Positions 1 to 51,447 of a DNA stretch of 54,922 nucleotides are shown here, piece by piece. Within the stretch, counting starts at the first letter, position 1. Every line of letters starts with the position of its first letter. Source of the DNA: an uncultured Bacteriovorax sp. (lineage in GTDB: Bacteria; Bdellovibrionota; UBA2428); the NCBI GenBank assembly GCA_964640545.1, contig CAZXHL010000006.1, forward strand, positions 1 through 54,922, written 5' to 3'. Under the pieces are notes generated by a model, which did not search any database, had not been told where the DNA came from, and saw nothing but the letters and a program-made list of their open reading frames with translations. Made by a program: the position numbers and the translations under genes.

Positions 1-96
1 GTAGCACTCCCCTTGTCCTGAGTAATGAATATAAATATTTAATATGACTTAGAAAGGCTACTACACGCGCCCTTACAACACTTAAGCGCGCACAGT
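1..96 (+). repeat. Partial copy (3' half, cut by window edge) of the ~220 bp palindromic intergenic element
   Basis: GCACTCCCCTTGTCCTGAGTAATGAAT...AAATATTTAA.ATGACTTAGAAA...CAACACTTAAGCGCGCACAGT closely matches the 3' half of the copy at 15607-15827. Confidence 0.9.
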
Positions 97-136
97 TTAA
101 TTAAGACCTGATTCGGGGCTTGGTATTAGGCAGTCA

Positions 137-13950: not shown

Positions 13951-14685
13951 TTAAAGCTCAACCACCTGGTTCATACTTCCACCGTTCAAAGATCTTACGT
14001 GAATCAAGTAACGACCTTTCATGCTGCTTGGAAGCTGAATCTCTTCAGAGAAAGCCTGACCTCTATCACGGTCGTTAACTACATTGGGATCACAACCTTC
14101 TGGAAATTCAACCAAAGGAAGAACAACAACAACGTTGCCTGGCTCTTCGATCATCTGAACTTTTTGAAGTTTGGCACATGCCTTTGGAAGTCTTCCTTCA
14201 AGCACGAATCCACGATCACCCTTGCGGATCAAACCAAAAACGTTTGCGTAAACAAAGTCATCAGAAGAATCTACAGGTGCGATTGAAACAGGCATAAGTT
14301 GCTGATCCGCCTTGTTGTTGACTTGAACGTGGTAAGAACCAGCTTTCAACAAGCCCAAAGAAACCACCTCAGTGAATGGAGTGTAGAGCATCAAGCAAGG
14401 ACGGTTGGAGTGAAAAAATGAAGTCACTTCAACATCAATAGTTTTTGTTTCGTCATTCACAAGAGCATCAACTCGGCCCACTTGGTAGCAAGTGTTTGGA
14501 TAGGCTCCAGTGATCACAACCTGAGCATTGTCGTTATTATCAAATCCTTTTGGTACAAAAATTCCATTGATAGGTGCCGCAACTTCTTCAACAGCATTGG
14601 AATCATCCCAGTCGCTAGCGCTTGCTGCAAAAGTTAAAAGTACCGCAGGGACAAGAAATAAATTTTTCCAATTTAAACGTTTCAT
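13951..14685 (-). CDS. Secreted hypothetical protein with two similar Cys-containing beta domains
   Basis: Signal peptide (ASA-S), AAAGGAG SD before ATG 14685, repeated G..P..C...C pattern. Confidence 0.7.
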   Translation of the reverse strand: MKRLNWKNLFLVPAVLLTFAASASDWDDSNAVEEVAAPINGIFVPKGFDNNDNAQVVITGAYPNTCYQVGRVDALVNDETKTIDVEVTSFFHSNRPCLMLYTPFTEVVSLGLLKAGSYHVQVNNKADQQLMPVSIAPVDSSDDFVYANVFGLIRKGDRGFVLEGRLPKACAKLQKVQMIEEPGNVVVVLPLVEFPEGCDPNVVNDRDRGQAFSEEIQLPSSMKGRYLIHVRSLNGGSMNQVVEL

Positions 14686-14780
14686 AAAATCTCCTTTTTC
14701 CGGCTTCACTTCCGACATCATGTCGCTTTAGCAGGTCCCGGAATATGACCTCAATATAGGCGGCTAGTAGCTATGCCAAT

Positions 14781-14794
14781 ATGATGGCGGTCAT
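14781..14794. promoter_or_regulatory. Candidate FNR/Crp-type box in divergent intergenic region
   Basis: ATGAT-GGCG-GTCAT resembles TTGAT-N4-ATCAA and lies next to a Crp/Fnr gene. Confidence 0.45.
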
Positions 14795-14919
14795 GTTGCA
14801 CAGGAATTAGCCTCAACACCAGCAAAACAAACAACGCATAGCATTAAGACGCTGTATTCACGTACAACAACCCCATCAAAAACCTTTATTCAGAGGCAAA
14901 ATCCTCCTAAAAGTTCGCA

Positions 14920-15600
14920 ATGCAACACAATCCAGCGCGCTGCCCCGTTTGTAGAGAAGGACTCGGTGGCTTTTTTTGTGTCCTCGACCCTGAACACATC
15001 AACGACATTGATCGCAGTAAAACCACAAAATCCTTCCGCACCGGCGAAGTGGTTTTTGAAAGAGGCGATTCTCCTCAGGGTTTGTTCTGCATTGTAGATG
15101 GCCTCATCAAAGTTGAAACGGAACAAGAAGAGGGGAAGTCACACATTCTACGACTAGCCGGACCAGGCGAGAGCATTGGTTACCGCGCACTTTTTGGACG
15201 AAGGCGATATGAGGCGAGAGCCGTTGCCCACGAAGACTCCAAAGTCCACTTCATTCCACGCTCCACAATTGACGATCTGATGATCAAACAACCACAGCTT
15301 TCCCTAAAATTTTTAGAGCTGCTATCCGAAGACATCAAACAAGCTGAAGAGAGACTTTGCGCGGCAACTGACAAAGATAGTGCTTCGAGAATTGCGGAAA
15401 CGATTCTTTTTTTAGACTCGAACTACACTCCCGATAAACCATGGACCCGCAAAGACATCGCAGACTGGGCGGGAACAACTCCTGAGACGGTCATGAGACA
15501 GCTGACTCAGCTGGAAAACCAAGGAATGATCGCAAGTGAAGGCCGGAGAATTTTGATTACTGATCCATCATCCTTGAATCAAGTCGCCCAAACGCTCTAA
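14920..15600 (+). CDS. Crp/Fnr family transcriptional regulator with N-terminal cysteines
   Basis: CPVC...C N-terminus, cNMP-binding fold (GE..F..GD, GESIG), HTH TRKDIADWAGTTPETVMRQL. Confidence 0.9.
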   Translation: MQHNPARCPVCREGLGGFFCVLDPEHINDIDRSKTTKSFRTGEVVFERGDSPQGLFCIVDGLIKVETEQEEGKSHILRLAGPGESIGYRALFGRRRYEARAVAHEDSKVHFIPRSTIDDLMIKQPQLSLKFLELLSEDIKQAEERLCAATDKDSASRIAETILFLDSNYTPDKPWTRKDIADWAGTTPETVMRQLTQLENQGMIASEGRRILITDPSSLNQVAQTL

Positions 15601-15606
15601 ACTGGA

Positions 15607-15827
15607 ACTGTGCGCGCTTAAGTGTTGTAGGGGCGTATCTGGTCTCAGAGGCCTTTCTAAGTCATTTTAAATATTTAGGTTCAGTCGAAGGACTATGGGG
15701 TGAATTGCTGGCGCCAGCCAGCAAGAGGGGAGTGGCACTCCCCTTGTCCTGAGTAATGAATCTAAATATTTAAAATGACTTAGAAAAGCCACTAAACACG
15801 ATCTTGCAACACTTAAGCGCGCACAGT
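15607..15827 (+). repeat. Complete ~221 bp palindromic intergenic element (copy 2)
   Basis: Arms ACTGTGCGCGCTTAAGTGTTG...TTTCTAAGTCATTTTAAATATTTAG / CTAAATATTTAAAATGACTTAGAAA...CAACACTTAAGCGCGCACAGT around core AGGAC-TATGGGGTGAA-hairpin-hairpin-GTCCT. Confidence 0.92.
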
Positions 15828-15839
15828 CTAAACTTGAGC

Positions 15840-17147
15840 CTAAGTTCCCTTAGTCCCACTAGGCGCTTTAGAGAACTTGATCAGCTTTAACAAGCCGCGA
15901 GCCTCCAAAACCATAGAATCATTTTGAATCTTCTCTTGGAATTTAGAAACTTTTTTCTTTTCAGCTTCAGGCTCTTTGGCATTGTCCAAGTGTCCTTCGA
16001 GGTCGGCTTCACTTCGGGAATAAAGAGAGGCTTTGAGCTTTTTTGCTGTCTCTTCATCGAGAGGAAGAAGTGGGTAGTCAGGCTCAATGCCCTTAGCCTG
16101 AATCGATCGCCCTTTGGGCGTGAAGTATTGCGCAACAGTCACCTTCAAACCTGATCCGTCTCCGAGAGGTAAAACGGTTTGCACCGACCCCTTACCAAAG
16201 CTTTTTTGTCCCGCAATGATCGCTCGTCCCATATCTTGCAATGCACCCGCAACGATTTCACTCGCGGAAGCACTACCACCATCAATCAACACAACTAGCG
16301 GCAGGTCTGTGACCTTGTTACCCTCTTGAGCGAATAGTTTTTCTTGCGCCTTCGTGGAGCGTCCTTTGGTATAGACTACCAAGCCCTTATCATTAAAAAG
16401 GTTTACGACTTGAACGGCTTGCAAGAGGAGCCCTCCAGGATTCCCTCGAAGGTCGAGAATGATGCCTTTGATGTTTGAATTTGTCTTATGTTTTCTAATC
16501 AATTCAGCAAGGTCTTGCCCTGTGCTTTCGGAGAACGATGCGATTCTTGTGTAAAGAGTGTCCTCCTTGATCACAACTCCACGAACAGACCTCATTTTAA
16601 TGATTTCACGAGTAACATCTAACTCTATCGTTTTGCTATCACGCCCAATAGTGACTTTAATTTTCGAACCAGGGTCACCCCTCATCAATGAAACTGCTTC
16701 AGGCAAAGACATTTTCTTCGTGGAATGCTTTCCAATTTTTAAAATTACATCTCCAGCCAGAATCCCAGCCTTGTCGGCAGGAGTTCCCTCGATGGGAGAA
16801 ACAACTGTGATGTAATTTTCATCAATGCTGACTTCAACCCCTAGCCCACCGAACTTTCCAGAAGTTTCATCTTGCATTTCGCTGAAGATTTTCTTTTCTA
16901 GATATGCCGAATGCGGATCAAGATCTCGAAGCATTCCCTTGATGGCGCCTTCAATGATTTCTTCTTGAGAAACGTCGTGCACATAGTTTTCTTCGAGGTA
17001 TTGAAGAATCTTCGCAAATTTTTCTAGCGATGGGTAATCAACCTTTGCGGAAGCCTGAAAAGAGAAAGCCCCCAGCACTCCTCCGCACACAACTGATAGC
17101 AAGAGCTTCTTGGGGGATCGTAAGGAGTGAAACTTGGATTGGTTCAT
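15840..17147 (-). CDS. ctpA: S41A carboxy-terminal processing protease
   Basis: LDPHSAY, PDZ GGLGVEV, DLRGNPGGLL, SASASEIVAG, GKGSVQ motifs. Confidence 0.92.
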   Translation of the reverse strand: MNQSKFHSLRSPKKLLLSVVCGGVLGAFSFQASAKVDYPSLEKFAKILQYLEENYVHDVSQEEIIEGAIKGMLRDLDPHSAYLEKKIFSEMQDETSGKFGGLGVEVSIDENYITVVSPIEGTPADKAGILAGDVILKIGKHSTKKMSLPEAVSLMRGDPGSKIKVTIGRDSKTIELDVTREIIKMRSVRGVVIKEDTLYTRIASFSESTGQDLAELIRKHKTNSNIKGIILDLRGNPGGLLLQAVQVVNLFNDKGLVVYTKGRSTKAQEKLFAQEGNKVTDLPLVVLIDGGSASASEIVAGALQDMGRAIIAGQKSFGKGSVQTVLPLGDGSGLKVTVAQYFTPKGRSIQAKGIEPDYPLLPLDEETAKKLKASLYSRSEADLEGHLDNAKEPEAEKKKVSKFQEKIQNDSMVLEARGLLKLIKFSKAPSGTKGT

Positions 17148-17177
17148 AGAATCATTCTATGGCCGATGTAGAAAGGT

Positions 17178-18050
17178 TTACAGAGCTACTTTAGCCAAAG
17201 ATTCGGCACGAAGCACATCTTTTGGATTTGTCGCCACACCTTGTCGCCTATATTCGAAATAAAGGCGATCTAAAGACATTCCTAAAGACTGACCAGCTTG
17301 AATCTTTTGTCCCTTTTTGAGGGAACGTAATGTCGAAGGATTAAGATTGGCATAGACCGTTAGATGCCCTGCACCATGATCGAGCATTACCACCCGGCCT
17401 CGTCCTGAAATTTCTCCCACAAATACGACTGTAGCTGGCGCGCAGGAAACCACTTCTTCATGCGGAGTCGATAACCACCAACCAAGAGAATTCCACTCAA
17501 GTTCCGTCTCTACGTCCTTTTGCATTCCAAAACCCTGGATAAGCTCAACCTTGTCAGCGGCATTCACCGGTAGATCATTGCATACAAATCGAACTTTCGA
17601 GTTCTGCTCAATAACGGGCTTTTGCTTTAGGAATTCTTCTTGCTGAATCTTGGTCCATTCCAGTTCAGCCTGAGCCTCGATGCGCCTGGATTCAAGCAGA
17701 TCCAAATCCCTAACACTTTCCTTAAGACCAAGTGCCAAAACCTTTAGAGACTTATCTCGACCTTCTGAGGTGGTCTCAGCATCCATCCAAAGATAGCGAG
17801 GACCAGCCACCGGCTTTTGTTTTAAACGATAGAACATCCGAGATTTCTGACGAATTTCTTTCTTCTGATCACCTATGCGATGGTCAATCTCGTCTAGCAA
17901 TCTGACTTGTACCTGAATCTGTCGATCATATTCACTAAGTTCTGAATCTTCGACAATGTCGTCTCCTGCCTCTTCGCCGCCAATTGCCGCATAGACCTGA
18001 GCACTAAACAAGCAGAGAGCAGAAACCGCAAAAAGTGAACGCCAATTCAT
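17178..18050 (-). CDS. envC: EnvC-like murein hydrolase activator (coiled coil plus degenerate M23 domain)
   Basis: Signal peptide, coiled coil, DHGAGHLTVYANL and LYFEYR without M23 metal ligands; downstream of ftsEX. Confidence 0.7.
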   Translation of the reverse strand: MNWRSLFAVSALCLFSAQVYAAIGGEEAGDDIVEDSELSEYDRQIQVQVRLLDEIDHRIGDQKKEIRQKSRMFYRLKQKPVAGPRYLWMDAETTSEGRDKSLKVLALGLKESVRDLDLLESRRIEAQAELEWTKIQQEEFLKQKPVIEQNSKVRFVCNDLPVNAADKVELIQGFGMQKDVETELEWNSLGWWLSTPHEEVVSCAPATVVFVGEISGRGRVVMLDHGAGHLTVYANLNPSTLRSLKKGQKIQAGQSLGMSLDRLYFEYRRQGVATNPKDVLRAESLAKVAL

Positions 18051-18055
18051 GAAAT

Positions 18056-18951
18056 CTAAAGCTCCTGAGCTGGCTGATCAATAAGCGGCCAAGTCAAGAA
18101 CGCCCCAGCAACTGAAGCCAAAATACCTAGACCTGCAAGACTCAAGCTTGAATTTATAGAGAGAGCTGTCATCTGAAACTCAGACGGAAGCAAGAATAAC
18201 TGGCTATGAGGCACAATGTACTTGAAGAAAATTGTGACACAACCAATGGACAGAACCCCGCCCGCAATTCCAAAAATCATTCCTTCAAGAAATAAAGGAG
18301 CAAAAATCCGACCACGTGAAGCACCTAAGATTTTCAAAGTTTCAATTTCACCGCGAATAGCCTCGAAGGCCAACCGAATCAAGTGACTCACGAGCAAAGC
18401 AACAACCACAAAGACCAAGAGTAGCAATCCTGTTGCCCATGAGAAAACTCGTTCACTAACAGCTTCTTGCTTAGGAGAAAAAGCTCCCAAGCCTTCGTCC
18501 ACGTCCAATACCCCTGGGCGCGAACGCAAATCATTAAGCAAGTTTAAAAACTCAGTTCGAGTCAAGCTGCCCGATGCAAACTGCAAGTTCATTGTGACCG
18601 GAAGAGACTCTTCATCGAAAACCTTTGAAAGTGTGTCACCGAACTGAAGCTTTAGAGATTCCAAAGCTTGTTCTGAAGGAACAATGTTTGCTGATGCAAA
18701 TCTAGGACTTTCAAGAAGTTCCATTTTGAAATTCTCTAGCTCGTTCTCACTAAGCTTCGGATCCACAAACACAGTCAATCCTGCGATTCCACCATTAGTG
18801 ATACTTTGCTTGCCCGTAACCCTTACGCGCTCAAGGTTTTCCACAACAGTCCAAAAACCACCCAGCATCGACAAAGAAATCGTAATCGCGATCAAAGTCA
18901 AAAAGGCAGAAAATGGCCTAGTAAGAATATGTCTAACAGTGAATTTCCAAA

Positions 18952-18955
<4 letters not shown>
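18056..18955 (-). CDS. ftsX: Cell division permease FtsX
   Basis: One TM, periplasmic domain, three TM; EIETLKILGAS...PLFLEG; follows ftsE. Confidence 0.88.
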
Positions 18956-21936
<2,981 letters not shown>

Positions 21937-21955
21937 ACGCTAAAAATCAGTTCAC

Positions 21956-22486
21956 TTACTTGTTGATGTAAATGAATTCGCTTTCAAGACCGCCGGCCAG
22001 AATCTTCATGCGAAAAACTGACTTTACATCTCCCGCATAGAACTTATCAGCCAATGTGTAACTCACTATGCTTTTGCCTTCGACCGCGATAGTCGTTCCA
22101 ACAAAACTAGCGCTATCATCCGTTCGTTGATTCTTGATGGCGCCGTCTTGAGTGAGGAAGACATCATAGATTTCTACAGTCGATGACTTTTTGATTTCAT
22201 AAAAAGGATCACAAACTTCACCTTCGCTTTCAATTTCTTGGCAAAGATCAATCAATACCGTGAAGTCGCCAGCCAAATCCATCTGCCAGCTCAATTGAAA
22301 GATATCGGCATCAAGAGTCTCGTCGTAGCTTTGGTAAGTTTTTGCAGCCTGTGGCTGAATCGTGCTAGCTGAAGGTGCTGGACTTGGACCAGGAGCAGGC
22401 GCCCCTCCTACACCGCCATTACATGCGGAGAGCAAAGCGAGGGCAAAAACAAATACGAGTGGTGTTTTGTATTGTGGTGTTTTCAT
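21956..22486 (-). CDS. Hypothetical lipoprotein
   Basis: Lipobox LSAC followed by a Pro-rich linker. Confidence 0.7.
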   Translation of the reverse strand: MKTPQYKTPLVFVFALALLSACNGGVGGAPAPGPSPAPSASTIQPQAAKTYQSYDETLDADIFQLSWQMDLAGDFTVLIDLCQEIESEGEVCDPFYEIKKSSTVEIYDVFLTQDGAIKNQRTDDSASFVGTTIAVEGKSIVSYTLADKFYAGDVKSVFRMKILAGGLESEFIYINK

Positions 22487-22582
22487 TAGGCCGTTTTATC
22501 CACCTAACACGGCGCATTCAACTTAAAAGCTATTACATAACCCGGACAAGGTGTTGATATTACGCTTGTGCGTTCCGCAGAC

Positions 22583-23734
22583 CTACCAGCTAAGGGTGCC
22601 CTGACCGTAGTATCTGCGATCGACTCCAATGCCTGGGCCGGAACCAAGATTCTCAGCGTAACTCCCCACTTCGAGCTCAAATACACTCCATTTGAACCCG
22701 AGACCACCCCCCAAATTTCCCTTAGCCAGGTGGGCACGCATATAGGTCGTATAGAATGAACGCGGTCGTATTGTGAATTGGAGGGCGGCGTGAAAAATTT
22801 CCAAAAATTCATCAAAACCCGTTCCGAGATCTCGCAGCTCGAAAGAAAGTGTTGGTTCAATGATTCCTGAATTCATAAGCTTTCCTGCAATTCCAAAATT
22901 GTATCGTCTAATCATCGATGGAGGGGTGGAAGAACCTGCACTCAAACGAATGGGAAATGAAGTTGCCAGAAGATTTTGAGCTGCAAGCCCCGTCGTAACC
23001 TGCAACCGGGAACCTTTGGTCAATTGAAACGTCACCATATCAAATTGCATTCCTAAGTCGAAGTCCATCCCCAAACCAGTCCCGGCAAAATCAGAAAAAT
23101 TGTCTGTCACGTTGGCAATGGAATCGTTCTCTAAGTCTGCGCGCAATCCACTCCGGTAAATCAACGGTTTCCAGGTGAAGCCGATTCGGAGCCTCCCCGC
23201 CATAAACGGGTGTCCATAGGCAAACGCAGCTCCGCCCTGAGCCACACCAAATAAATCAGCTTGAGCAAAAAGCAAAGAAGGCGTTCGAATTCGAATAGAG
23301 CTTTGAACTCCAAAAGGGTTCACCGCAATTCCAAATCGATGCTTGGTCCAATAAGCATCTAAAATTGAAAAGTCGAGTCCAGCAGTCGTTCCATTGAGAA
23401 TCTGAAGCTGCTCTGAAATTGTAGAACTTCCGCCTGAAGTCAATTCTTTTAGTCGATCAATCAAATCAAAGAAGTTTGCAGATATTCCAAAGTTGGCGAA
23501 CTGAGGCAATAGAAGCTCTCCTCCCTCTTCAGACACTAGAGCCAGACCTGCAGGATTGACATAAATTGAATTGAAATCATCCACGATAGCTGTGGTTGCC
23601 ATCCCCATTGATCGAGATTGTGCAGAAGCAAACCACTCTTGCGTCGCAAAACCAGCTTGGGCGTCGAAACTCATCGCGCCCCACAGAAAAACAATAAATG
23701 AGGAAAGGCCCCTCAAGCGAAAAAATAAACTCAA
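22583..23734 (-). CDS. Outer-membrane beta-barrel protein (TraF/PorV/FadL-like N-terminal motif)
   Basis: Signal peptide; RSMGMATTAIVDD..SIYVNPAGL motif; amphipathic strands; C-terminal aromatic residue. Confidence 0.7.
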   Translation of the reverse strand: MSLFFRLRGLSSFIVFLWGAMSFDAQAGFATQEWFASAQSRSMGMATTAIVDDFNSIYVNPAGLALVSEEGGELLLPQFANFGISANFFDLIDRLKELTSGGSSTISEQLQILNGTTAGLDFSILDAYWTKHRFGIAVNPFGVQSSIRIRTPSLLFAQADLFGVAQGGAAFAYGHPFMAGRLRIGFTWKPLIYRSGLRADLENDSIANVTDNFSDFAGTGLGMDFDLGMQFDMVTFQLTKGSRLQVTTGLAAQNLLATSFPIRLSAGSSTPPSMIRRYNFGIAGKLMNSGIIEPTLSFELRDLGTGFDEFLEIFHAALQFTIRPRSFYTTYMRAHLAKGNLGGGLGFKWSVFELEVGSYAENLGSGPGIGVDRRYYGQGTLSW

Positions 23735-24363
23735 GATGATGTCATTTTATCAAGTAATTTCAAAATTTGGCTTCTGAACTCAGACAGATTCCCGTCGTTT
23801 TTGATCAAAAGTTGCGCCTTAGCCTCGAGCTCAGCATCCGACATCTGCATCGCCAAAATACTCTCGACATCCTTTGCCGGTCGCTGGTCCCGAAGAGAGG
23901 CTCTTTCAACCTTCTTGGAATCATCAGCCAACACCCCGATCACTCCGTCCAGAATCTTACTAAGACTGGCTCTATCTCCAGAGTCAAACATATCTATCGC
24001 CTCAATAAAGGCAAACGGCTTCTGCGATACGATCAAAACCTCCGCCATCCATGTTTTAATGTCATCACGAATCAAGGGATGCAGGATAGAAGTAAGCTTT
24101 TTTTTATTAGAAGTATCACCGTCGGGACTCTTGGCAAACCAATCACGAACCACCCGTCGATCCATGACTTCGCCATCAAAGGCCTGTGGCCCCACAAGAT
24201 CAATGATTGATTTTTTGGTTTGATAGAAATTCTTGTGCGCTGGCTCCGTTACTCGCCGCGCTAGTTGATCGGCGTCCAAGACCCGAAACCCCAACTCATC
24301 GAGATATTTCAACATAGAAGATTTTCCACTTCCGATGCCACCAGTGATGCCCCAAAACTTCAT
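23731..24363 (-). CDS. coaE: Dephospho-CoA kinase
   Basis: GITGGIGSGKS, DADQLAR, ILHPLI, QMS, IKNDG motifs; start at MKFWG. Confidence 0.92.
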   Translation of the reverse strand: MKFWGITGGIGSGKSSMLKYLDELGFRVLDADQLARRVTEPAHKNFYQTKKSIIDLVGPQAFDGEVMDRRVVRDWFAKSPDGDTSNKKKLTSILHPLIRDDIKTWMAEVLIVSQKPFAFIEAIDMFDSGDRASLSKILDGVIGVLADDSKKVERASLRDQRPAKDVESILAMQMSDAELEAKAQLLIKNDGNLSEFRSQILKLLDKMTSS

Positions 24364-24383
24364 TTGAGTTAAGATTAAAGCTA

Positions 24384-25226
24384 ATGAGCGCCAATTTACA
24401 AGAGCAGAGCCGAATGATTCGCCATGCAGGGCTAGAATTGTCGGGCACACATTCTGCTAAAACTTGTATTACGGTTCTAGACCACTATCCCGACTCACAT
24501 CGACTCGTGCTCTCAGAAGTTCATTCGAGCATGGGGAGGGAAACCCTCGGCAACAGTGACGAAATCTTACGCCTACAACTCAATAGCCTTGGTGTTTCAC
24601 CTCATGAAAATTTTGAGTTTGCCGGAATCTGCACTCAAGCTCCCACCTCGCTCCCACCTCACTTCAGCGAGGCTGACAATGCCAGCCAAGAAGTTTCATG
24701 GCTGAACGATTACTGGCAAAAAACAAAACCGCAACCAAGAAAATTTCTTCCATACCTCAATCGGCCCTTTGAAATTTGGATGCGTTATTTTACACCCGAG
24801 AAATTTCGAATGCCCGAAAGCATGGGAGCAAACCTTGCCCCCATCGCAGCTCGCATGGACTTCATTAAACAAGAATTAAAATTTCCAATTTACGAAAACT
24901 TTCCAAGAGCTACCTTTCAAAGACTCAATTCTGCAATAGGCGGACAAAAGTCGTGGGTCCGTGATTACACAGACATCGACAAAGGTATTCCCACTCGAGA
25001 AAGATTCATTCAAAGACTTCTCGACAAGTCTCCGGGAATTTTTATCTACGAACATGATTTGGATATTCTAGTTTTCGAGCTTCAAGTCTTCCAAGCTTTT
25101 CTATCTGCGCTCTGCCTGTATCTTAACCAAAACAAACAATGCGAAACACGTCCTAACAACTTTCCACAGAAAAGCACTTGGGGCCTTCTTCCCAGGCAGC
25201 ACATCGCTTGGGAAAAGCTGGTTTAA
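24384..25226 (+). CDS. DUF429-like (RNase H-fold) hypothetical protein
   Basis: GLELSG...TC, QAPTSLP and YENFPR patterns resemble the DUF429 GIDL/DAP/E.YP motifs. Confidence 0.5.
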   Translation: MSANLQEQSRMIRHAGLELSGTHSAKTCITVLDHYPDSHRLVLSEVHSSMGRETLGNSDEILRLQLNSLGVSPHENFEFAGICTQAPTSLPPHFSEADNASQEVSWLNDYWQKTKPQPRKFLPYLNRPFEIWMRYFTPEKFRMPESMGANLAPIAARMDFIKQELKFPIYENFPRATFQRLNSAIGGQKSWVRDYTDIDKGIPTRERFIQRLLDKSPGIFIYEHDLDILVFELQVFQAFLSALCLYLNQNKQCETRPNNFPQKSTWGLLPRQHIAWEKLV

Positions 25227-25340
25227 TCGAAAAAGTCTCCCCTCCCCTCCGAACAGCATCTGGAATTCGGCACGTTACACGCACAGCTCTTAACACAAAC
25301 TTAATTTGCTCGTTATTTACAATGCCTCTAAAATCGATCC

Positions 25341-25928
25341 ATGAGATTCTCCATTCTTTTACTATTGTCTTTGACGTTTTCACAGCAAGCCTTCTGCGTT
25401 GAAGCTACTTCTGCGCCCGCTACGTCAGCACCAGAGGCAGGGGGGAATTTTTTTAGCAAGCCATCCAATGGCGTTTTTAGCACACCATTCAACGACCCCT
25501 ACGAAGACCGTCCATACCAGTCAGAGGCGGAAAAAGTTAACTACTGCAAAGTCAGACAAGCTCAAATAGAATCCAATAAAACCGCTCTCGAAAAACTCGA
25601 AGCACAGCTCAAAGAACAACAAAAAGCTAATTTAGCAACAGACATAGCAAAGATAGCTGAATGTGAGAAAGAGACGGATGCCCTACTCAATAGTGATGCA
25701 GACATTGAGCTAGTTATGAAAGCAGCTGCAGGCACGTGTGACACCCCCACCTGCACCAACACCTGCGAAATGTCACAACGGATTGAAAGAATGATTAGTT
25801 TTCGTCGGCACCTTCTCATGAAACTTGAATCGACATTTCACAATGAAGGCTGTCGGGCGGCCTTGAGAATCGACGAAAGATCCAACCCTCCATCCCACGG
25901 TGATGACCACGATAATGGCTCGCTTTAG
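25341..25928 (+). CDS. Secreted Cys-containing helical hypothetical protein
   Basis: Signal peptide; TTGCTC-N17-TAAAAT-N6-ATG upstream. Confidence 0.7.
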   Translation: MRFSILLLLSLTFSQQAFCVEATSAPATSAPEAGGNFFSKPSNGVFSTPFNDPYEDRPYQSEAEKVNYCKVRQAQIESNKTALEKLEAQLKEQQKANLATDIAKIAECEKETDALLNSDADIELVMKAAAGTCDTPTCTNTCEMSQRIERMISFRRHLLMKLESTFHNEGCRAALRIDERSNPPSHGDDHDNGSL

Positions 25929-25931
25929 GAA

Positions 25932-26366
25932 ATGTTGATGCGCCAACTTTTCTCATCTGTTTTCTTTATTATGGTGGCCACAGCTTCTCAACCGGGGTTA
26001 GCGAGTAGCGACGATCCACTTTTTGGAAACGATAAAGAGAGTCGCAATCGTACAATTTTTAAGAATATCGAACTGAGGGCAGAAATTATCTTCAAAGAAT
26101 ATAACAAGAGCAAAAATTTAGATGGGGTGAAGGCTCAAAAGGCCTACATCAACGAAAAACTCGAGTTACTCTTTCTAGGAATAGACCCAGAATCCTGGAG
26201 TCGCAGACTAAGCACAAAGACGGGTTCGCTACAAAAGATATGCTACATCAACTCCTTGATGGACTCCTTAGAGTTCATGGCGATCGCAGAAGGTAAACGA
26301 TTTCTACACAAAGAAGTTGCTGCTACACTTCGCATCGTATCCAAACGCTGCTCAACCCCGCGTTAG
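25932..26366 (+). CDS. Secreted hypothetical protein
   Basis: Signal peptide-like N-terminus; 3 nt after the previous stop. Confidence 0.65.
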   Translation: MLMRQLFSSVFFIMVATASQPGLASSDDPLFGNDKESRNRTIFKNIELRAEIIFKEYNKSKNLDGVKAQKAYINEKLELLFLGIDPESWSRRLSTKTGSLQKICYINSLMDSLEFMAIAEGKRFLHKEVAATLRIVSKRCSTPR

Positions 26367-26596
26367 ATTTAGACGCGTTACCGCGAGTCTTAGTAACATC
26401 AAATTAAGAATTCGTTAGCTTTTTGACAAACCTGACCATTTTTAATGATTTCAACACATTACTCCTAGAGATTTTTGGCGAATGTCATAAAGTTTATGTG
26501 ATATTTCCAGCCGGTCTCGTTATAATAAAACTAGGCTATACGTGGAACCTTGGTTCTCCGTGGCTAGAGTCTTCGGATTCGAAAGGAGGTGGTGTA

Positions 26597-26650
26597 GTGG
26601 ATTGTTCGTATCAGTATAGTCACTTAACCGTAAAGGGGGTTAGCGGCTGA
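26597..26650 (+). CDS. Candidate 17-aa small ORF (MDCSYQYSHLTVKGVSG) in a short standalone transcript
   Basis: AAAGGAGGTG SD 7 nt before GTG; TATAAT at 26521; terminator at 26685-26722. Confidence 0.45.
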   Translation: MDCSYQYSHLTVKGVSG

Positions 26651-26684
26651 ATAAGTCGATAACTTCATCAAGGTAAAATTGACC

Positions 26685-26722
26685 GAGGTGCTTATCTTAG
26701 ATGATAAGCGCCTCTTTTTTTT
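26685..26722 (+). terminator. Intrinsic terminator
   Basis: GAGGTGCTTATC-TTAGAT-GATAAGCGCCTC followed by T8. Confidence 0.85.
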
Positions 26723-26939
26723 CTGCCGCCCACTAAAGTTAACAGCCCAACTCCTCTTCAAAGTCATCCACATTATCAATCGTATACACTTTGGTCGGCT
26801 GACTAATAAGTAGCTAAATTATTAAGTTTACTTGGGTTATTTTGTTAAGCTAATATAAAGATACCAAGCTAATTCTAAACTCTGTTCGTTAGCCCCTACT
26901 TTCCCTCCCCAGCTGCACGTGAACCCGAAAGGTTTACAT

Positions 26940-27680
26940 ATGCTAGATTTAAAAAAATTACTTATTGCCCTCGTTATTCTCAGCCAAGGTGCTTGTCAGC
27001 TAATCATTGAACCTGTGGCTAAAGACAACGGTCAAGACAAAGAAACGACTACGCCCCCAATAACACCAACCCCATTACCGGAACTCTTAACTTATAAGTG
27101 TCTAAAATCAACTAGCTCAGGAGCAGTAAGCTTAAGTTCATTAGAAAGTGCCGTCGACCTCACGGAAGCCGTAGCAAATTTTGCCTCTCAGCCAAGGGTG
27201 ATTACAGGGTTTGGAATTGATTTGTCAGCTGCTGGTATCTCAGGAATTGAAGTTGAATCACAAAGTTTTGACGAAGACATGCTTTTAGACTCAACTTCCA
27301 CTTTGCTTCATTCCGACGGCAATCTCGGCACCAATGAAATATTTGTATCAGCACCCGAGGGATATTTCATCAGCAGTGTGGGAATTGTTCCACACAGCAC
27401 CGGAGCCCGTGTATCTAGTGTTTACCTTACCGTAAGCAAGGCGAATCCGAACACCAATAGCTTCGAGCAAAAATATTGCTTTGCGAATAGCTACGAAGTT
27501 CAATGTGGCGATGAAGATTACAGATCATACCTGTCATCTACAGGACTAGGTCGGCTTGCTGAACTATCAGGCGCTTCTAATCAAGGCTTGGTATCTTTGG
27601 GGGCTAGTATGGTTGACATCAATCACGCCAGCTTCAGCGGCTCGAAGTCGACATTAAGCTTTGGAACTTGCGTCGAATAA
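26940..27680 (+). CDS. Hypothetical lipoprotein, Ser/Thr-rich beta protein
   Basis: Lipobox QGAC, Pro/Thr linker, paired cysteines. Confidence 0.7.
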   Translation: MLDLKKLLIALVILSQGACQLIIEPVAKDNGQDKETTTPPITPTPLPELLTYKCLKSTSSGAVSLSSLESAVDLTEAVANFASQPRVITGFGIDLSAAGISGIEVESQSFDEDMLLDSTSTLLHSDGNLGTNEIFVSAPEGYFISSVGIVPHSTGARVSSVYLTVSKANPNTNSFEQKYCFANSYEVQCGDEDYRSYLSSTGLGRLAELSGASNQGLVSLGASMVDINHASFSGSKSTLSFGTCVE

Positions 27681-27686
27681 CAGAGG

Positions 27687-28340
27687 CTAGCTTGAGGGCT
27701 CGTTCCACTTAAATCTAAAGAACATCTTGGGGGGTTGAGTTCCCAGCGGCCAATCGAATTCAAAACTTGTTAACTCGCCATCTTCTCCGAGGATCACATT
27801 GGCTGACTTAGTCCAGTTTTCCAAATCTTCTGAGACTTGTAGCTCATACAGCACCCCCTCTTTGCCACCCTTGAGATCAAGCTTCACTCTAGTGACATCG
27901 GGCTGTCCATCTCCATTGGTATCAATATGGGTTATACCCAGATTGCTCGCCTGAGGTTTGGGAGGCTCATTAGGAACGTAAGGCTCGGTAACGGGGAAGA
28001 TCGAATCCGAAAAAGCACTCTCGAGACCAGAGTTGTTATAAGCCGTAGCCGCAATTTCATACGCCGTTGCGTTTTTCATATTTCCAATTGTAAAACTTGT
28101 GACATTTCCGACGTCTACAGTCGTCCACGGTGTGACACCTATTTCTCGATAATGAATTTTATAGCCTGCAAGATCTGATTCTGGATTGGGGTTCCAAGCA
28201 ACCCCCAGAGAAGCTGTCGCGAATTGACTTCCACTAAAAGAGGTATCGCCGGATCCTCCATGCCCCGATTGTGCCCGAGAGAACGAAGGCATCCCTATCA
28301 AAACTAAAAATAGCGCAAATCGACATAAGTGATTTTTCAT
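27687..28340 (-). CDS. Secreted fibronectin type III domain protein
   Basis: Signal peptide; W.PNPESDLAGYKIHY...Y.IAATAYN.SGLES FN3 pattern. Confidence 0.8.
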   Translation of the reverse strand: MKNHLCRFALFLVLIGMPSFSRAQSGHGGSGDTSFSGSQFATASLGVAWNPNPESDLAGYKIHYREIGVTPWTTVDVGNVTSFTIGNMKNATAYEIAATAYNNSGLESAFSDSIFPVTEPYVPNEPPKPQASNLGITHIDTNGDGQPDVTRVKLDLKGGKEGVLYELQVSEDLENWTKSANVILGEDGELTSFEFDWPLGTQPPKMFFRFKWNEPSS

Positions 28341-28462
28341 TCCCCACTGAGTATAGCGTATCTTTCTGGGGAATAAACAAACTCTGCGTGAAAGGTGTTT
28401 TCTGAGCTGCCCTTTTAGATACCTTGCAAAGCCATTAACGAAAGCTTAACTATAAATAGCTT

Positions 28463-29146
28463 ATGGAAAGAATGGAATTTGATCTCCAAAAAGGCTGGAG
28501 CAAGGGCTTAAGAATCTGCTTTGAAGAAGCTTCTTCAAGTGACGATTTCAACATCAAAACAGCTCTCCATGTGAAACAAGTTCATGGCGACAAGATCTAC
28601 GATGTTGGCCCAGAAGATCTTATGAAGATCTCCCCCCTAGCCGAGGCTGATGGAATGATGGTCCAAGGAGATTTTTTTCGCTCCTTCAAGCGCCCCCTAC
28701 TCATCAAAACGGCGGACTGTGTTCCCCTGATCTTGATCGACCGTGAGGCTGAAACGATTGCTATCATTCATGCAGGATGGAGAGGACTTGCTCAAGGCAT
28801 CCACACCAAGCTCATTGACCAGGGGCACTTTGAACCCAGTAAAACTTGGGCATGGATAGGCCCCTCTCTCAGCGGGCGAGAATTCGAAGTCAAAGAAGAC
28901 ATGTGGAGCCAGTTCCCCGAACATAAAGATCCTACAATCTTCGAGCCAGGCCCCACCTCCGACATCAAATATTTCCACACTTGGAAATACCTCGAAAAAT
29001 GCTACGACGATCTGGGACTAGAAGTCATCTACAACCCCGAAGTTAGCACCTACAGCAACGAAGCCTTCTATTCCCACCGAAGATCTATTCACAGAAACGA
29101 AGAGCGCAAAGGCCACAACTACACCTGGCTCAGATTCTACGAATAG
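28463..29146 (+). CDS. pgeF: PgeF/YfiH (laccase-like / purine nucleoside phosphorylase) family protein
   Basis: QVHG, EADG, TADCVP, HAGWRG, IGPS, FYSHRR motifs; adjacent to rluD. Confidence 0.88.
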   Translation: MERMEFDLQKGWSKGLRICFEEASSSDDFNIKTALHVKQVHGDKIYDVGPEDLMKISPLAEADGMMVQGDFFRSFKRPLLIKTADCVPLILIDREAETIAIIHAGWRGLAQGIHTKLIDQGHFEPSKTWAWIGPSLSGREFEVKEDMWSQFPEHKDPTIFEPGPTSDIKYFHTWKYLEKCYDDLGLEVIYNPEVSTYSNEAFYSHRRSIHRNEERKGHNYTWLRFYE

Positions 29147-29149
29147 CTC

Positions 29150-29369
29150 GTTGTACGCCAGAAGTGCTTGGTAGAGCGCGCGAGTATCATTTCTAAATCA
29201 GTTGAAATATTTGTGTTCATTACTCAGGACGAGGGGGAGCGCAGCCCCCCTCTGGCAAGTTTGCACTTGCCATTCACCCCCATAGTCCTTCGACTGAACC
29301 CAGATATTTCAACTGATTTAGAAACGCTCCATCTTTTTTGCGCTCTACCAAACACTTCTGGCGCACAGT
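29150..29369 (-). repeat. Complete ~220 bp palindromic intergenic element (copy 3, core on minus strand)
   Basis: Arms CGCCAGAAGTGCTTGGTAGAGCGC...TTTCTAAATCAGTTGAAATAT / ATATTTCAACTGATTTAGAAA...GCGCTCTACCAAACACTTCTGGCGCACAGT; core 29226-29289. Confidence 0.92.
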
Positions 29370-29379
29370 GAATTTACAG

Positions 29380-30525
29380 TTACTTGATCGTCGTGAAAGT
29401 CATCGGCTTGCCAGTGGCGGGATGATCCAAATACAAAGTATGGGCATGCAGAAGCATTCGTGTGAAGGTTTGCCCGCCATAAAGGTTGTCGCCCAAGATC
29501 GGAATTCCCAAAAAAGACAGATGAACTCTGATCTGGTGAGTCCTTCCCGTCTCCAATTGAACATCAAGCAGCGAGTAGTGAGAATCCTCTGCGAAATCTG
29601 ATTCCTTAAGCGAGAAGCACTTAAAAACTTCTGGTGCGAGTTTATGCAATTCGCTGACACGATTGTGATGCATGATCTTAAAATGAGTCAGGGCTTTTTT
29701 GCCAGTTAAAGGATCCACTGCAAATCGAAGCCGATTTTTGGGATCTCGCCCCAGAGGCGCTGCCAAGGAATGTTTTCCGTTCTTAAGAACTCGAAAGGCC
29801 AATTTAGAAGGGTGATCCTCTAGAGCAAGGCGAGCTTTACGGTGCAATGATGACTGCAAACTTTTGGCATTACCATCAACCCAAGCCCAATAATGTCTAC
29901 CAGCGAGCTTCTTCGCAAACTGAAGCGACAAAGCTTCATGTGATTTAGGATCTTTGGCAACGACCAAACAACCCGAGGTGCCTCTGTCGAGACGGTGGAC
30001 AATGCCAGGCCTCGCCTCTTCAAGGACCTGATCTCCCCAACTTAAATGCTCGTTATTGGGGGCGACGTAGTTGTTCTTAAGAAGCCAAGCGACCAAAGTT
30101 TCTTCCAGTGGAACTCCGGCCCCGGGATGGACCGTTAAACCAGCGGGCTTGTTGATGACCATGATGTGATCGTCTTCGAATAAAATCTCCGGAGATTTTG
30201 GGAAACGAAAGTCCAAATCTTTCTTTCCAATCATTGAGTTCATCTCAGATTTTGAAAGAGGTTCTTGCTTTTTAGTTGAGGAATCTTCTCCGACAAAATC
30301 ATCTACTTCTGGATTCAACTCCAGTCGCTGCCCCACCTCAAGACGAGCACTCGCTTTGGCAATGGAACCATTCAATAGAAAAAGATCTCTCGAAATGAGT
30401 TTGGACCACCGGCTACGAGAAATATCGGGGAAATGCTCGGATAGAAAAACGTCTAGGCGCTTGGTCACGAGACCTTGCTCAACTTCGACGCCTAATTGTA
30501 TGGGAAAGTGCTTTTTCAGGTCCAT
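29380..30525 (-). CDS. rluD: RluA/RluD family 23S rRNA pseudouridine synthase with S4 domain
   Basis: RLDVFL S4 domain, NKPAGLTVHPG, HRLDRGTSG, TGRTHQIRVH, LGDNLYG motifs. Confidence 0.9.
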   Translation of the reverse strand: MDLKKHFPIQLGVEVEQGLVTKRLDVFLSEHFPDISRSRWSKLISRDLFLLNGSIAKASARLEVGQRLELNPEVDDFVGEDSSTKKQEPLSKSEMNSMIGKKDLDFRFPKSPEILFEDDHIMVINKPAGLTVHPGAGVPLEETLVAWLLKNNYVAPNNEHLSWGDQVLEEARPGIVHRLDRGTSGCLVVAKDPKSHEALSLQFAKKLAGRHYWAWVDGNAKSLQSSLHRKARLALEDHPSKLAFRVLKNGKHSLAAPLGRDPKNRLRFAVDPLTGKKALTHFKIMHHNRVSELHKLAPEVFKCFSLKESDFAEDSHYSLLDVQLETGRTHQIRVHLSFLGIPILGDNLYGGQTFTRMLLHAHTLYLDHPATGKPMTFTTIK

Positions 30526-51223: not shown

Positions 51224-51230
51224 AGCTTGA

Positions 51231-51447
51231 ACTGTGCGCGGTAAAAAGTGGAAAGCCCTAAAAGCTCAGGCTCTCAATCATTCTAAATATTTGGATTTGT
51301 TACTCAGGACAGGGGGAGCGCAGCCCCCCTCTGGCAAGTTGGCACTTGCCATTCACCCCCATAGTCCTAAGCACAAACCAACTATTTAGAATGATTGAGA
51401 ACCCGAACTACGGCTTTTATGGCTTTCCACTTTTTACCGCGCACAGT
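51231..51447 (-). repeat. Complete ~217 bp palindromic intergenic element (copy 4, core on minus strand)
   Basis: Arms ACTGTGCGCGGTAAAAAGTGGAAAGCC...CTCAATCATTCTAAATA / TATTTAGAATGATTGAG...GGCTTTCCACTTTTTACCGCGCACAGT; core 51306-51368. Confidence 0.92.

Follow-up and report, generated by a model that had tools for sequence, protein, structure and literature searches.

The locus and its repeat

The window analysed here is positions 1-54,922 of contig CAZXHL010000006.1 from the assembly GCA_964640545.1 of an uncultured Bacteriovorax sp., and the locus of interest is a 239-nt gap between two convergent genes, which encode a Crp/Fnr-type regulator and an S41 C-terminal processing peptidase and are both confirmed by Pfam (Table 1). 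This gap is occupied by a repeat, copy 2, of which copies 1, 3, and 4 lie elsewhere in the window. We show that the repeat is a transposable element of the miniature inverted-repeat kind (MITE) with a matching insertion sequence (IS), that its apex is a structurally constrained module common to distant phyla, and that its placement is biased with respect to gene ends. The initial annotation of this DNA had picked out the apex alone, as a conserved branched core containing a compensatorily substituted hairpin, and had overlooked that this core tips a hairpin with a stem of about 100 bp which bears terminal inverted repeats (TIRs).

We searched the draft genome (2.9 Mb in 219 contigs) with an nhmmer profile built from 20 full copies, which finds 52 MITE loci, 26 of them full and 26 partial. 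Because 23 of the 26 partial copies stop at contig ends, we conclude that the repeat breaks the assembly, a fragmentation that is also of practical consequence. Summed contig depth in four DNA runs (Logan contigs) is 55-112 in the MITE bin, compared with 3-8 in the flanking bins. The MITE is 215-232 nt long and has no coding frame, its arms have 61-73 Watson-Crick positions out of about 85 in each copy, and members of a subfamily are 87-97% identical. Copy 1 shares 89% identity with positions 15732-15831 of copy 2. The limits of copy 2, 15607 on the left and 15827 or 15831 on the right, are the points where contigs of other copies diverge, and the element ends, ACTGTGCGC...GCGCACAGT, occur in this genome as 25 pairs within 600 nt.

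Several forms of the element depart from this common plan. An internal loop of the left arm (window 15629-15650) is almost wholly different, over 8-14 nt, between subfamily-A copies that are otherwise about 90% identical or more, and some versions of this segment are common to two or three copies. Three elements of this genome (G000:C21:22436-22666, C34:19927-20156, and C107:5683-5914) have the same ends with a different, larger apex, C12:36279-36406 is a 128-nt form without the module, and C91:1719-1853 is a 135-nt internally deleted copy. The arms also show a wobble asymmetry (69 G-T vs 43 A-C), which was discarded as decisive evidence, the copies not being independent.

Table 1. Coordinates of the MITE copies, their substructures, the flanking genes, and the partner IS
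Feature	Position	Strand	Remarks
MITE copy 2, full	15607-15827	+	Long imperfect hairpin occupying the gap between convergent genes; nhmmer 210.7 bits
Left TIR	15607-15632	+	Starts ACTGTGCGCGC; pairs with 15802-15827
Right TIR	15802-15827	+	Pairs with 15607-15632
Branched core, copy 2	15689-15756	+	Apex of MITE 15607-15827; three-way junction
P1 closing helix	15689-15693 and 15746-15750	+	AGGAC pairs with GTCCT; 95.5% of cells paired
Cross-phylum pattern match	15697-15730	+	Exact; G-run, TGAAT, hairpin 1, GA, start of second G-run
Hairpin 1	15705-15724	+	8-bp stem, GCCA loop
Hairpin 2	15726-15744	+	AGGGGAGT / ACTCCCCT, G-run against C-run
MITE copy 1	1-97	+	Right part only, cut by contig start; nhmmer model positions 125-221
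MITE copy 3	29153-29369	-	Module 29247-29280; left terminus decayed; nhmmer 130.6 bits
Core, copy 3	29221-29289	-	Related to core 15689-15756
MITE copy 4	51230-51447	-	Module 51326-51359; nhmmer 210.5 bits
Core, copy 4	51301-51368	-	Related to core 15689-15756
Crp/Fnr-type regulator	14920-15600	+	Pfam cNMP_binding 9.9e-20, HTH_Crp_2 3.9e-15; stop 7 nt before MITE
S41 C-terminal processing peptidase	15840-17147	-	Pfam Peptidase_S41 5.7e-56 and PDZ domains; stop 13 nt after MITE
Partner IS	G000:C2:29460-30657 (locus L021:1061-2258)		Outside the window; ends 1198 nt apart, enclosing a 361-aa open reading frame (ORF)

Structure and covariation of the apex

The letters at 15689-15756 are as the initial annotation gave them. 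In agreement with it, a comparison of hairpin 1 between copy 2 (TTGCTGGC) and copy 3 (TGGCAAGT) shows that 4 of the 8 pairs have been exchanged and that pairing is perfect in each, and copy 4 has a GCCA loop. Folded with DNA parameters, both strands of the 68-mer give the proposed three-way junction as the minimum free energy (MFE) structure (z -4.5 and -4.3), and the same junction forms the tip of the RNA MFE fold of the whole 221-nt element, which reaches -128.8 kcal/mol (z -16.7) and is equalled by none of 200 shuffles.

We aligned 28 copies, 27 from this genome and one from the related genome G010, on a structure consisting of the lower stem, the closing helix P1, hairpin 1, and hairpin 2. 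In this structure 95.8% of cells are paired, compared with 87.5% in shuffles and 35-53% in slid controls; 20 of the 43 pairs change on both sides, and both the pairing and the covariation score were reached in 0 of 500 shuffles. Hairpin 1 has double changes at 4 of its 8 pairs within the genome. Hairpin 2 is paired in 92% of cells, with one doubly changed pair and 7 G-U cells, and P1 has one pair with G-C to A-U double changes in three copies. All 24 invariant alignment columns lie inside the core, and the arms vary. The 103 double-change cells are accompanied by about six variants of hairpin 1 among the 28 copies and therefore go back to few independent events. Selection for structure in the core is supported.

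The covariation that the initial annotation expected in a larger alignment is thus present in these 28 copies. The conservation of GAGTA, on whose persistence across more copies it had also staked its proposal, is lost: of the 26 aligned copies extending as far as this site, 16 read GAGTA and the others GAGCA (3), GAGAA (4), or GTG.. (3), so that this flank is not invariant as had been claimed. The unpaired TATGGGG(G)TGAA, likewise described as essentially invariant, is so in its GGTGAA part (28/28), whereas TAT becomes TATC in three copies and TAA in one. The sequence-specific single-stranded segments which it proposed accordingly reduce to GGGGTGAA(T) and the G/GA linker, without GAGTA and TAT.

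The module in distant phyla

From the invariant letters we derived a search pattern (GGGGTGAAT, K, GC, 12 free bases, GC, M, AGAGGGG) and scanned contigs of one genome per species, which yielded at least 96 matching stretches. The 80 loci read hold 83 instances and comprise 52 Alphaproteobacteria/Pseudomonadota records, mostly of named Rhodobacteraceae genera, 24 Myxococcota metagenome-assembled genomes (MAGs) of the Polyangiaceae and Kofleriaceae, 3 Clostridia, and 1 MAG carrying this same MITE. A control pattern read backwards has no match in 9 + 401 genomes, and the pattern itself has none in 2.9 million viral contigs. In the phylum of this genome, the pattern occurs in 2 of 401 sampled genomes, namely this genome, with 25 matches that are found solely inside MITE copies, and G010, with one.

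The pairing of hairpin 1 reaches 98.0% in a set of 82 distinct sequences that come from several phyla, with a covariation score of 0.653 compared with 0.135 in shuffles, and none of 500 shuffles reaches the observed value. The four pairs that the pattern leaves free each show three to four Watson-Crick types, and the K-M pair is U-A in 51 and G-C in 29 of these sequences. Hairpin 1 of the module is thus free in sequence and closed by U-A, K-M, G-C, and C-G. By a C-run rule, 73 of the 83 instances have a hairpin 2, which consists of the second G-run, a loop, and the C-run, and the loops differ widely. TAT, GAGTA, and the AGGAC/GTCCT helix are absent from the instances outside this MITE family and are local to it. 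The conserved unit is therefore the G-run followed by TGAAT, hairpin 1, GA, and hairpin 2, about 55 nt in all, and not the three-way junction. What had been proposed as a three-way junction selected for structure stands with respect to structure, through the covariation within the genome and the much stronger covariation of hairpin 1 across phyla; as a conserved unit it does not, the closing helix being restricted to this MITE family.

Two G-runs compete in the module for one C-run, and each of the six strands that we folded is predicted to form hairpin 2. The length of the 5' G-run equals that of the C-run in 37 of 53 non-Myxococcota instances (r 0.65), and one relative has GGGAGGG repeated ahead of GGGAGGG..CCCTCC. 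Both observations lend indirect support to the idea in the initial annotation that the first G-run could pair with the C-run to give an alternative fold, with the qualification that the instances are related and do not amount to an independent test.

The surroundings of the module differ from group to group. At L063 and 11 more loci of a Polyangiaceae MAG, a genome with 20 strict pattern matches, it sits midway in a different repeat of about 195 nt that has inverted ends of its own and another four hairpins, and in Kofleriaceae it lies within a repeat of about 70-100 nt that is sometimes in tandem. Rhodobacteraceae genomes have one to three strict matches each, with differing hairpin-1 sequences, and show a conserved leader of about 27 nt before the G-run and no conservation farther out. 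The module is kept at matching loci across species, for instance in two Paracoccus and four Shimia records. Downstream of hisF, 30 Rhodobacteraceae family members show a spectrum of module relatives, some with other linkers and stems; among L156, L169, L175, L160, L170, and L179, two lack hairpin 1, with a G-rich word directly repeated. These relatives occur in both orientations, or as an inverted pair at the same locus, and the presence of both orientations downstream of hisF indicates repeated insertion or turnover at a single locus. Finally, in a Lachnospiraceae MAG prophage (L108:1405-4964), the module adjoins the stop codon that ends a tail-fibre gene with a 3' variable repeat, and is followed by an 84%-identical template repeat and the reverse transcriptase of a diversity-generating retroelement (DGR).

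No shared upstream gene was found among 36 upstream ORFs scanned, of which 20 have Pfam families, all of unrelated housekeeping types, and the three Clostridia upstream ORFs show no homology among them. Rfam 15 gives no match at the gathering score for the window and 15 module loci, and relaxed searches up to E 10 give only chance-level matches, with E of at least 0.3. The literature searched, to which most subscription papers do not belong, contains no description of the module, which may be related to Caulobacter intergenic repeats.

A partner insertion sequence

The partner IS lies on another contig (C2) of the same genome. Its two ends, when compared, have 22 of 26 positions in common, and they match MITE subfamily C45:16704 at 23 of 26. 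A second IS fragment, on contig C75, is 61% identical to the first, and the ends of copy 2 resemble this variant: the right end of copy 2, reverse-complemented, is identical to the right end of the C75 variant at 24 of 26 positions, and its left TIR is identical to an end of that variant at 21 of 26.

For the 361-aa protein encoded by the IS, no Pfam family passes, including DDE_Tnp_IS1. The NCBIfam IS1 model NF033558 matches it with an E of 2.7e-9 and 37.2 bits, below the cut-off of 100, and over residues 6-134 only, a region that corresponds to an N-terminal zinc finger and helix-turn-helix (HTH). The protein has 361 homologues at E <= 0.001, none of which has a Pfam domain; some are named 'transposase-like protein' by JGI, and many lie on contigs of 1-2 kb. 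An AlphaFold2 model built with 35 homologues has a pLDDT of 84.3 and a pTM of 0.82, and the PDB entries that Foldseek ranks highest for it are those of retroviral integrases and of the ISCth4 transposase, with probabilities of 0.98-0.99 and TM-scores that are low, as expected for multi-domain chains. Language-model neighbours, which are a lead only, include DDE_Tnp_IS1 clusters at 0.91-0.92. The IS protein is a zinc-finger/HTH protein whose modelled fold is integrase-like and of the DDE type, and its family looks like a widespread IS1-like transposase family without a profile. We infer that the 361-aa protein is a DDE transposase, which would move the MITE in trans. It is absent from all of the 80 module loci read.

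Insertion sites

Among 41 related genomes, the MITE is found in three: this genome, G010, and G001, the last with a 30-nt end fragment only. G010 belongs to another genus and has one copy, 97% identical, with flanks matching nothing in this genome. G001, from the same genus, keeps both flanks of the copy 3 site around a gap of 59 nt, compared with 274 nt in the window, and both flanks of the copy 4 site around a gap of 68 nt, compared with 308 nt. These gaps are empty sites, in which, at about 70% identity, the insertion point is unreadable. The empty site of copy 3 (G001:C58, about 64331-64391, L014) contains a hairpin with a 10-bp stem that includes AGGAC...GTCCT, as in the closing helix, which may be due to chance.

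No target-site duplication is detected at the element ends: the best direct repeat averages 4.5 nt in matched flanks and 3.9 nt in mismatched ones, and 2 of 25 reach at least 7 nt. Copy-specific inverted flanks are barely above background (6.6 vs 5.8 of 12 positions). Immediately outside the repeat, 99 ends, belonging to both MITE and IS copies, share an 11-nt A+T-rich palindromic consensus (about TWAARNTTWAA), for example at 15596-15606 and 15828-15838. Stop codons lie 6-7 nt from many MITE ends, and the element may bring them, target them, or reach beyond the high-identity repeat. Elsewhere in the window, at 20459-20737, contigs from two of the four DNA runs (X2 and X5) skip 277 nt; the shorter side of this joint has 21 letters, which makes it a weak hint of a length polymorphism.

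Gene context and possible role of the module

Sixteen of the 25 full copies that are flanked by genes on both sides lie between convergent genes, a configuration found at 346 of 2201 junctions genome-wide (binomial p 7e-8). For the module itself, coding strands were called by third-position G+C at 55 instances outside the Myxococcota. Next to hairpin 2, the neighbouring gene runs on the opposite strand in 29 cases and on the same strand in 5 (20 not called, 1 lacking sequence); next to the G-run, the corresponding numbers are 10 and 17 (24 not called, 4 lacking sequence). The hairpin-2 end is thus nearly always turned toward a gene's 3' end. On the G-run strand, G-T oppositions outnumber A-C ones by 13 to 3 (4:2 in hairpin 1 and 9:1 in hairpin 2). 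A simple scan of 15300-16100 finds no other terminator-like or promoter-like site.

We propose, at about even confidence, that the module is a strand-specific element which works at the 3' ends of genes by folding as a single strand, RNA being the likeliest, with a transcript-end or insulating role that helps MITEs to sit between convergent genes. The module would be terminator-like, would mark the transcript end, or would insulate one gene from the other; a MITE bearing it would be tolerated, or might even be useful, between convergent genes, and the closing helix that makes the three-way junction would be just the top of the MITE's own stem.

Several observations weigh against this proposal and the mobility that goes with it. 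A terminator draws little support from the sequence: the simple terminator scan finds no site in the window copy, and hairpin 2 is followed by 0, 1, 2, or 3 T in 6, 41, 18, and 8 of 73 instances, respectively, the sequence after it in L108 being CCCCTCTTTT. The 29-to-5 bias places the module antisense to the gene that it abuts, which leaves the relevant strand ambiguous, and the G-T excess is small and in part a matter of slippage in the G-run. Of the 24 runs containing the locus, none is of RNA. Copies in related genomes are not independent, and the counts overstate the support that they give. As for mobility, the lack of a target-site duplication is unusual for a DDE-type MITE, no contig in the four DNA runs (contigs on 14500-30500) joins across a MITE, so that these runs provide neither an empty allele nor an exact boundary, nor any transposition event within the population.

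The main rival is a role of the module as DNA. Hairpin 1, along with hairpin 2, might be extruded as a hairpin or cruciform or might fold on single-stranded DNA, and in combination with the fixed letters at its flanks it would be what a recombination or transposition protein, or a retroelement, recognises as its site for landing or processing. We find this doubtful, and equally doubtful the corollary that the spread across phyla and the presence in unrelated MITEs reflect the module's own mobility. The free stem sequence with a kept stem structure recalls what is reported for the DGR DNA hairpin (PMC3240598), and at L108, one of the 80 loci, the module indeed lies between the stop of a variable gene and the template repeat with its reverse transcriptase; nevertheless, that is the only locus with a reverse transcriptase, the IS protein is found at 0 of 80, and no protein is a consistent neighbour, the upstream genes being unrelated housekeeping ones. 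The two orientations downstream of hisF, which imply repeated insertion or turnover, the 5' G-run, which resembles a duplicated target in repeating the length and, in one case, the sequence of the second, and the patchy distribution in the phylum (2/401 genomes) are all consistent with a DNA-level activity. Y1 transposase genes occur in all five tested genomes, but 6 of 14 control genomes have them as well, and the three of this genome lie on contigs without a MITE. REP (repetitive extragenic palindromic) elements served by one transposase are not known to vary in hairpin sequence within a genome in the way that hairpin 1 differs between the copies of a single Rhodobacteraceae genome, and the bias of placement with respect to gene direction is more easily obtained via transcription.

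It is less probable still that the apex has no function here, having been captured once by an ancestral MITE and conserved because the copies are young, with compensatory changes that mark a few old subfamilies; that the hairpins persist because palindromic DNA is copied faithfully is similarly improbable. The 87-97% identity within a subfamily is what such an origin would leave, as is the small number of events, about six hairpin-1 variants in 28 copies, behind the 103 double-change cells, and the MITEs that have the same ends with another apex (C21, C34, C107) or none (the 128-nt form) show that the apex is not needed for the element to be present. Against this, conservation within the element is highest in the core, which holds 24 of 24 invariant columns while the arms vary, and the module recurs in other phyla with the same linker letters and fully diverged stems and is kept at matching loci across species. 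A neutral hitch-hiker is hard to reconcile with this cross-phylum conservation. A catalytic or ligand-sensing RNA, either a self-cleaving ribozyme or a switch operated by the two competing G-runs, seems to us very improbable. Small ribozymes often ride on repeats, and invariant unpaired letters beside covarying helices, as well as two G-runs whose lengths track one C-run, are what one would look for in either, but no ribozyme or riboswitch of Rfam 15 matches, at the gathering score or up to E 10, the element lies after genes and not in leaders, and hairpin 2 adjoins its own G-run and is the fold predicted in 6 of 6 strands.

Beyond the transcript-end reading at this locus, we suggest tentatively that the module represents an undescribed class of portable structured elements, read in the form of a folded single strand by a factor common to distant bacteria. 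Such a class might perhaps have been picked up repeatedly by unrelated MITEs (in the Bdellovibrionota-like genome, in Polyangiaceae, and in Kofleriaceae), and possibly also by a short Rhodobacteraceae repeat and, once, by the target site of a phage retroelement. Such an element could serve as a mobile, bidirectional cassette that ends or insulates transcripts, or its hairpins could be a landing pad for recombination, and the paired G-runs would give it two states.

MITEs are usually seen as junk derived from a parent IS, and here the most conserved part of the element is not IS-derived. At least four phylum-level groups agree in the unpaired letters of the module, even as one of its stems has fully diverged and still pairs. 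If these readings are correct, the module would be a widespread structured element, as RNA or single-stranded DNA, that is absent from Rfam 15 and open to test in cultured Rhodobacteraceae. Unrelated mobile elements would then share a functional cargo, which bears on how compact genomes tolerate repeats at convergent stop codons.

Comparison with known systems

As a MITE, the element belongs to an already known kind. IS-derived bacterial MITEs are treated as a general class in a review (PMC3184786), and the present element resembles them in being short and non-coding, in having TIRs common to an IS in the same genome, and in its many dispersed copies, long stem-loop fold, intergenic location, and presence or absence between relatives. 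It differs from them in that no target-site duplication is detected, in that its apex is common to other phyla and unrelated MITEs, and in that the partner transposase family has no Pfam model. The partner IS, for its part, shares with the IS1 family an N-terminal zinc finger and HTH and an RNase H-like catalytic fold, but it differs in its sub-cut-off profile match, its single 361-aa ORF, and the lack of any 8-9-bp duplication seen.

The nearest functional analogues of this MITE are the SPRITE, bcr1, and REP elements. In common with the present element, REP elements and REPINs are hairpins rich in G+C whose foot carries a conserved unpaired motif; they are found behind genes, in many cases in the gap of a convergent pair, and two of them in inverted order form a long hairpin. 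Where they are associated with a RAYT, a genome has one hairpin sequence, with a conserved tetranucleotide at the foot. Here, in contrast, there is no GTAG-type motif, and hairpin 1 differs among the two or three copies of a Rhodobacteraceae genome. A RAYT-like partner was considered and rejected, since Y1 genes are widespread and none of the three Y1_Tnp matches of G000 lies beside an element, all three being on contigs without a MITE hit.

SPRITE is described in the review's account as a terminator-like repeat biased to convergent gene ends and confined to one genus (PMC3184786), and going by that description, the present module differs in being mostly without a clear U-tract and in extending across phyla. 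The bcr1 repeats of the Bacillus cereus group are transcribed, and their cruciform-like structure is kept by compensatory base-pair changes, according to the same account (PMC3184786); they have 5-bp direct repeats at their flanks, and the account reports no cross-phylum core for them. In DGRs, a DNA hairpin or cruciform downstream of the variable repeat is reported to act in a manner that depends on its structure and not on its stem sequence (PMC3240598). The L108 module sits at exactly that position, whereas the other 79 of the 80 loci searched have no reverse-transcriptase match, and the window copy lies in a MITE between housekeeping genes. What sets the present case apart from all of these systems is a module with fixed linkers that is common to unrelated repeats in distant phyla.

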